Part shown: in pieces, positions 50,465-50,950 of the stretch
How the letters are laid out: each line of letters starts with the position of its first letter
Numbering within the stretch: position 1 is the stretch's first letter
Source: Dictyostelium discoideum
Taxonomy: Eukaryota
Assembly: GCA_000004695.1 (NCBI GenBank)
Contig: CM000151.3
Span: 2,560,001-2,624,000 of the forward strand
Length of the DNA: 64,000 nt
Direction of reading: 5' to 3'
Program-made: the position numbers and the translations under genes
Notes under the pieces: model-generated
What the model was told of the DNA's origin: nothing
The model's input: the letters and a program-made list of their open reading frames with translations, nothing else
Databases searched by the model: none

Positions 50465-50950
50465 CGTCCTGTATCCAATTTTCCTGATATTTTTTAATTT
50501 TTTCTTATTTTTTTTTTTATTTACTAAAGGCTTCTAATTTCCTTGCATTTTTTGTTTTTCTTTGTTTTGTGAACAGAGTAAACAATACTAACAACAATTA
50601 CAGTTGCAAAGCAAACAGAACCAATTGTAATACCAGCGATTTGACCTTTTGTTAAACCAGATTTCTTTGAACATATTGAATTTTCACTTGATTGTGATGC
50701 CGCATTTTGGTCGATTAAAAGTGAAAATCAGGATCAATCGATACAGATTCACTATAATGTGGAATTATTATACCAATATAGGATTGTTGAGCATGTGTAT
50801 TTGATTCAATTGTATTCATTGAATCAATTGTATTCATTGAATCATCAAGTAAAATATTATCAACACTAACTACAAGATCATCAACGATGGCCCTCTTTTT
50901 AAAAATCTACTGTAAACTGAATGATCATCAATTTGTAATTTAATAAAGTT
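50465..50950 (-). pseudogene. Truncated, decayed duplicate of the last ~330 coding nt plus the 3' flank of the adjacent large glycoprotein gene (45221-50042). It lies directly upstream of that gene's start.
   Basis: 50527-50950 aligns base for base with 45229-45660, with gaps: GTGAACAGAGTAAACAATACTAACAACAATTACAGTTGCAAA.., ..CCAGCGATTTGACCTTTTGTTAAACCAGATTTCTTTGAACATATTGAATTTTCACTTGATTGTGATGCCGCATTTTGGTCGATTAAAAGTGAAAA.. There is a 1-nt deletion, an 18-bp tandem duplication (CAATTGTATTCATTGAAT x2) and point changes that break the frame. The flanks 50465-50526 and 45160-45228 also match. The track ORF 50870-51064 (..DDSNFIKLQIDDHSVYSRFLKR..) is the residual reading frame. Confidence 0.65.

Follow-up and report, generated by a model that had tools for sequence, protein, structure and literature searches.

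A 3′-end relic upstream of a ComC-family gene in Dictyostelium discoideum: a probable tandem-duplicate pseudogene homogenised by gene conversion

Truncated duplicated pseudogenes of the non-processed kind are known products of the decay of tandem gene arrays, and a gene is known to evolve in concert with a pseudogene or paralogue that lies next to it. In antigenic-variation and immunoglobulin systems, pseudogenes also donate sequence to genes. At the Dictyostelium tgrB/C locus, partial gene fragments, duplications and recombination have been described around cell-surface genes (Holland et al. 2025, PMC12745789). Here we compare with these systems a minus-strand relic, situated 480-920 bp ahead of the ATG of an intact ComC-family gene; in the literature, dictyBase being outside the scope of the search, no description of this particular relic was found. 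From sequence comparison we put at roughly 85% the probability that it is a functionless, truncated non-processed pseudogene of a former upstream tandem paralogue of that gene, homogenised by gene conversion. What is left of the lost paralogue would be its last ~144 codons and, probably, a little 3′ flank.

The relic and its intact neighbour

The window, that is, the whole stretch of 64,000 nt that was analysed (D. discoideum contig CM000151.3, positions 2,560,001 to 2,624,000), is strongly A/T-biased (GC content per kb, 12-31%), and its proteins match those of D. discoideum. The assemblies used for comparison belong to BioProject PRJNA1300491 (Holland et al. 2025, PMC12745789), and orthologous loci were picked by their common downstream neighbours, namely a Polyketide_cyc protein, NDK and a Zip transporter. 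These loci were those of an AX2-like D. discoideum assembly (L001, GCA_054883475.1), D. citrinum (L002, contig JBTAPK010000018.1), D. dimigraforme (L003), D. firmibasis (L004) and a second D. discoideum lineage (L006, GCA_054859385.1). Around the relic, 24.8 kb matched contig JBTAPE010000001.1 of L001 with 99.85% identity, one mismatch and seven gap openings. Because the relic sequence was identical in this independent assembly, we rejected the reading of the relic as an assembly artefact.

The intact gene (45221-50042, minus strand) has six exons and encodes a ComC-family EGF-like type I membrane protein of 1409 aa, the same as GenBank KAM9952192.1 (P0001). TBLASTN with this protein recovered all six exons in the window at ~100% identity, approximately at 50042-49695, 49501-49220, 49139-48831, 48748-48446, 48351-47989 and 47878-45221. 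Pfam searches of the last exon revealed DUF7035, DUF7034, DUF7949 (EGF-like) and the ComC supersandwich domain (ComC_SSD), so that the gene carries the full domain set of the ComC family together with a signal peptide and a transmembrane (TM) segment. Its homologues include many ‘EGF-like domain-containing’ ComC-family proteins of group-4 Dictyostelium. The downstream neighbour (43110-43843, minus strand) is a three-exon gene for a 155-aa nucleoside diphosphate kinase, which we take to be the cytosolic NDK of D. discoideum (ndkC), in which case the locus would presumably fall within the chromosome-2 region that is duplicated in AX4.

When the gene region 45100-50100 was searched by BLASTN against the whole 64 kb, a single specific secondary match was obtained, joining 45119-45656 to 50422-50960 on the same strand (E=4.2e-176); the remaining matches within the window were all A/T-rich low complexity. 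The core of this match (45262-45656 against 50547-50960) showed 16 substitutions in 393 aligned sites, that is, 95.9% identity. A sequence-only reading of the window had proposed a repeat of the 3′ end of the gene at this place and in this orientation, and the alignment confirmed it, with corrections to its extent. The coding-derived part of the relic (50520-50960, minus strand, about 440 bp) corresponds, according to BLASTN and TBLASTN, to residues 1266-1409 of the parent protein and thus to the last 144 codons and stop of the gene (45221-45656), not to ~110 codons, and the homology starts at 50960 rather than at 50950. The adjoining stretch 50365-50519 is probably a remnant of the 3′ flank of the lost copy. 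Its weak, A/T-rich similarity to about 45077-45220 is visible past the former stop only as an extension of the main match, and with low-complexity filtering the spacer downstream of the relic gave no separate significant match to the 3′ flank of the gene, so that the earlier inclusion of the 3′ flank stands as an extension of the match and has no significance by itself.

A coordinate-resolved alignment along the minus strand identified four indels in the relic. The first is a GG insertion of 2 nt at 50892-50893, which causes the first of the frameshifts, translation then ending at a stop after ‘...FLKRGPSLMIL*’. It is followed by an in-frame 18-bp tandem duplication (50809-50826 and 50827-50844; two copies of TGATTCAATGAATACAAT on the minus strand), by a 1-nt deletion that shortens T5 to T4 (50724-50728, between 50727 and 50728) and produces the second frameshift, and by the loss of 14 nt between 50546 and 50547, close to where the C-terminus once was; the region of the former stop codon (about 50519-50524) lies beyond this deletion. 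The earlier reading had correctly noticed the 1-nt deletion, the 18-bp duplication and the substitutions, and had missed the GG insertion and the 14-nt deletion. Two of the four, the 18-bp duplication and the 1-nt deletion, are peculiar to the window lineage; the duplication was missing from the parent gene and also from every relic or copy in the other genomes. The codons of the TM segment (50572-50640) are locally open, with no ATG upstream, and seven substitutions are packed into positions 50611-50628 within them, three of which are common to the upstream copy of D. citrinum.

In agreement with these lesions, TBLASTN detected the relic as three matches in three frames (aa 1266-1288, 1284-1337 and 1337-1391), and its translations contained stops in every frame. 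The TM-coding frame lacks a methionine and runs between stops, and no ATG-led minus-strand ORF of at least 50 aa crosses the relic. The frame-corrected relic peptide, in which everything before aa 1266 is missing, gave no significant match to Pfam, and the relic, in contrast to its parent, cannot encode a member of the ComC family. No match was obtained in tRNA and Rfam scans of the intergenic region. Judged by these lesions only, the relic would have no function of its own.

Other features of the surrounding intergenic DNA were also recorded. Long (TAT/ATA)n trinucleotide microsatellites occur at 51637-51764 and at 56619-56757; the former, which is intergenic, gives rise to a spurious 92-aa poly-Tyr ORF and to a cross-match with the Asn-repeat coding tract of a large upstream gene. 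On the plus strand, an ORF of 74 aa at 52260-52484 (MLKILIAILVVISLFSNVNA...), which has six cysteines and an N-terminus resembling a signal peptide, had no call in the L001 annotation and no Pfam match. In the second D. discoideum lineage this ORF is represented twice, by a 61%-identical copy that an internal stop interrupts and by another at 43%, and the ORF may be a fast-evolving gene for a small secreted protein or a pseudogene.

Copies at the same position in related genomes

Identities of the flanking genes gave the local species order ((discoideum, citrinum), dimigraforme), firmibasis. In D. citrinum, an upstream copy was present over at least 1853 bp; with 92% identity to the 3′ part of that species' gene, it reached the end of the contig and translated into at least 599 uninterrupted codons followed by a stop. 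Contig JBTAPK010000018.1 ends within this copy (L002 position 1), and it probably broke in assembly at the near-identical tandem repeat. In D. firmibasis, an annotated full-length upstream paralogue of 1413 aa was present in the same orientation and with the complete domain set. The reading frame of this paralogue changes between its coding blocks, which is consistent with retained introns and a duplication at the DNA level. Directly upstream of the D. firmibasis orthologue, a 2-kb patchwork of collinear scraps was also found (L004 7241-9265), comprising aa 123-139, 287-312, 413-451, 970-1007 (one piece also inverted) and 1308-1365.

In the flanking genes, the second lineage of D. discoideum has diverged from the window by ~3-5%. 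Its relic begins ~130 bp further 5′, from about aa 1222, and carries indels of -17, -2, +2 and -1 nt, none of them in common with the relic of the window. As an observation apart, the intergenic layout upstream of the relic differs between the two lineages (window 50961-52118 against L006 8700-9936): in the window, ~1.16 kb separates the relic from the segment that is homologous to 52118-52448, and this is not so in L006, which has extra, reordered copies of neighbouring segments upstream of its relic. This lineage also contains an unlinked paralogue (P0005; L005 10001-14811, GCA_054859385.1, contig JBTAPF010000012.1), 67% identical, that lies between genes for a polyketide synthase and a glycine-cleavage H-protein.

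D. dimigraforme kept the gene, and no relic could be detected there by relaxed BLASTN, relaxed TBLASTN or nhmmer (E up to 10) with a profile from all 3′ ends; these searches returned low-complexity matches only. Because this species, which branches in between, has nothing, it is possible that the D. firmibasis copies derive from an independent duplication, and their orthology to the D. discoideum relic is suggested by position and by one diagnostic site (column 498). With the neighbouring 115-aa exon as query, the homologue search yielded just one protein, from D. firmibasis. The homologue index is heuristic, and a query with the upstream copy of D. citrinum missed its 90%-identical neighbour (P0002), so that absence from its lists is no evidence of absence.

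Adjacency on the same strand and fuller copies in relatives thus point to an origin by duplication of genomic DNA. The earlier proposal that the repeat marks a former tandem array, of whose upstream member the 3′ end is all that survives, is supported by D. firmibasis, D. citrinum and the second D. discoideum lineage, the first of these having an upstream paralogue in full. Such longer and full copies fit a decaying tandem array and are hard to square with an event that copied a 3′ end only.

Age of the duplication and gene conversion

If the upstream copy is older than the split between D. discoideum and D. citrinum, it would be expected to differ from the gene by at least ~11%, since the 3′ ends of the genes of the two species are 89.3% identical; the difference seen was 4%. 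To this comparison belongs the reading of the relic as a young, lineage-specific partial duplication (a template switch or small segmental copy) of the 3′ end, with no full upstream gene ever present here. It would account directly for a relic that is closer to its own gene than the orthologous 3′ ends are to each other, and for the finding of no 5′ or middle gene piece upstream in the window.

The distribution of shared sites speaks against it. When the genes and upstream copies of D. discoideum and D. citrinum were compared as quartets, 25 sites grouped the sequences by genome, seven by copy type and none by the third topology. For the two D. discoideum lineages the corresponding numbers were two by genome, seven by copy type and none by the third topology, so that relic-specific substitutions are common to both lineages. 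The copy-type sites are only seven and are confined to one 5-bp patch and the A/T-rich region after the stop, where the alignment is less certain; they take in the three-substitution patch in the TM codons (sites 498, 500 and 502), common to the relic of the window and the D. citrinum copy, and the first bases past the stop. Sites of the upstream copy that are common across species show, as far as the sequences allow, a tandem duplication that would predate the discoideum-citrinum split. Between the relic and the ATG (50043-50364), conservation with D. citrinum was limited to the gene-proximal ~230 bp (L001 9773-10000 against L002 2044-2311), a stretch that was also conserved in D. dimigraforme (L001 9818-9987 against L003 9712-9890), and a common duplication junction is therefore presumed rather than seen.

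The differences between relic and gene are also distributed as a mosaic. In the window, a run of 208 sites was free of substitutions, which has a probability of 7.5e-5 under a uniform spread of differences and fits conversion rather than a single recent copying event; in the relic of the second lineage no clustering of substitutions was seen (P=0.70). The D. citrinum copy likewise compared with its own gene as a mosaic of perfect tracts of 300-350 bp and patches diverged by 10-20%. At alignment column 456, T was found in the D. citrinum copy and in the relic of the second lineage, and G in the relic of the window and in all genes, a pattern that argues for conversion of the relic by the gene in the window lineage, later than the split between the two D. 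discoideum lineages. Since the 208-nt tract also contains the 18-bp duplication and the 1-nt deletion, both of them private to the window, these would be younger slippage events. In D. firmibasis, the intact tandem paralogues (L004 1-3991 and 10001-14619) were 98.3% identical over the 3′ 2.7 kb and 80.6% over the preceding 1.2 kb, and the sharp boundary, near 11923 of the downstream gene, looks like that of a large conversion or unequal-crossover tract.

Together with the ~130 bp by which the relic is longer in the second lineage and the much longer copy at the same position in D. citrinum, these data make a young partial duplication improbable. Nor do they support the suggestion, made in the sequence-only reading, of a template-switch duplication that could seed new exons: related genomes have far longer versions at this place, and the relic in the window is not traversed by any ATG-led ORF. 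The high identity of the relic to its neighbour is best taken as that of an old relic re-homogenised by gene conversion, and not as a sign of youth; repeated gene-to-relic conversion would be the reason why it stands at 95.9%, compared with ~89% between orthologous 3′ ends.

We infer the following order of events for the tandem-duplicate pseudogene. A tandem duplication of the gene at the DNA level would have taken place before D. discoideum separated from D. citrinum. Deletions would then have eaten into the upstream copy from its 5′ side in the D. discoideum line, up to a breakpoint that differs in the two lineages, and each lineage would separately have gained indels of the slippage type. 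Repeated non-allelic gene conversion from the adjacent intact gene would finally have overwritten parts of the relic.

Possible roles of the relic and comparison with known systems

The relic might instead have been co-opted, as an alternative 5′ exon, as a regulatory part of the promoter or as a maintained conversion partner that varies the TM/tail region. Its position between 480 and 920 bp upstream of the ATG, its persistence since before the discoideum-citrinum split and the occurrence of conversion between relic and gene are all compatible with such a role, and a deposited model from another D. discoideum isolate (KAM9957498.1; P0051, 1467 aa; L006 10001-11010) joins relic sequence to the gene by splicing. 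This model, however, starts inside the relic of that lineage in a shifted frame (‘MMMYVPQNHLVIPQ...’), splices the TM codons of the relic onto the real gene and bypasses the intact exon with the ATG and signal peptide at L006 10943. Because skipping this exon would cost a type I membrane protein its signal peptide, P0051 probably reflects an error of gene prediction that the relic provoked. Nothing is called at the relic in the AX2-like annotation (L001), and the TM frame in the window is stop-bounded and lacks a Met. The indels and the 5′ boundary are unlike between lineages, as unconstrained decay predicts, D. dimigraforme keeps the gene without a relic, and the sole conversion whose direction could be deduced went from gene to relic. 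On this evidence we consider co-option unlikely.

A related proposal is that the relic is kept as a recombination partner, either through two-way conversion that varies the TM segment and cytoplasmic tail of the ComC-family protein, or in that direct repeats of ~400 bp flanking a gene of 5.3 kb allow its recurrent loss and re-amplification by non-allelic recombination; to this we give a similarly small chance. It is very improbable that the relic is a processed pseudogene, that is, a retrocopy of a 3′-truncated mRNA inserted beside its parent, for although it covers the 3′-terminal exon only and has A-rich sequence next to it, such sequence is everywhere in this genome and hence undiagnostic, the relic lies in tandem orientation directly beside its parent, longer or full collinear copies occupy the same place in relatives, and the D. 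firmibasis paralogue changes frame as it would with retained introns.

The significance of the truncated pseudogene is mostly of a housekeeping kind, and it opens no new biological question. It exemplifies how conversion resets apparent age, so that high identity to a neighbour does not mark a duplicate as young. It is also a trap for gene prediction, as seen in KAM9957498.1, where codons of the relic seem to have been joined to the real gene at the expense of the signal peptide. Across group-4 Dictyostelium, the locus offers a step-wise series of tandem decay in the ComC family, from an intact copy through a longer relic and the 144-codon relic to nothing.

Compared with known systems, the relic resembles truncated duplicated non-processed pseudogenes from decaying tandem arrays in its adjacency on the same strand, its truncation, its frameshifts and its full counterparts in relatives. 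Nothing fundamental sets it apart from them; it keeps the last 144 codons only, and its extent varies between two lineages of the same species. With concerted evolution of a gene and a neighbouring pseudogene or paralogue it has in common a similarity that is higher within than between genomes, a mosaic of identity and residual older sites, few and clustered as these are. It differs from the pseudogene donors of antigenic variation and of immunoglobulin genes in that transfer from gene to relic is what the sites suggest here, and there is no sign of the relic donating. Within the ComC family (ComC_SSD, PF22933, with DUF7035, DUF7034 and DUF7949), the parent gene has the full architecture and the relic its C-terminal tail only; tandem clusters of this family occur in related genomes, for example at the consecutive D. 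citrinum loci ACTFIV_005019 to 005022. The tgrB/C locus, studied in the same assemblies (PMC12745789), likewise has gene fragments near cell-surface genes, but it concerns another family and another locus, and the case described here is far more modest, with one relic beside one gene. All in all, the relic is not a new type of element but an ordinary truncated duplicate pseudogene in concerted evolution with its parent.
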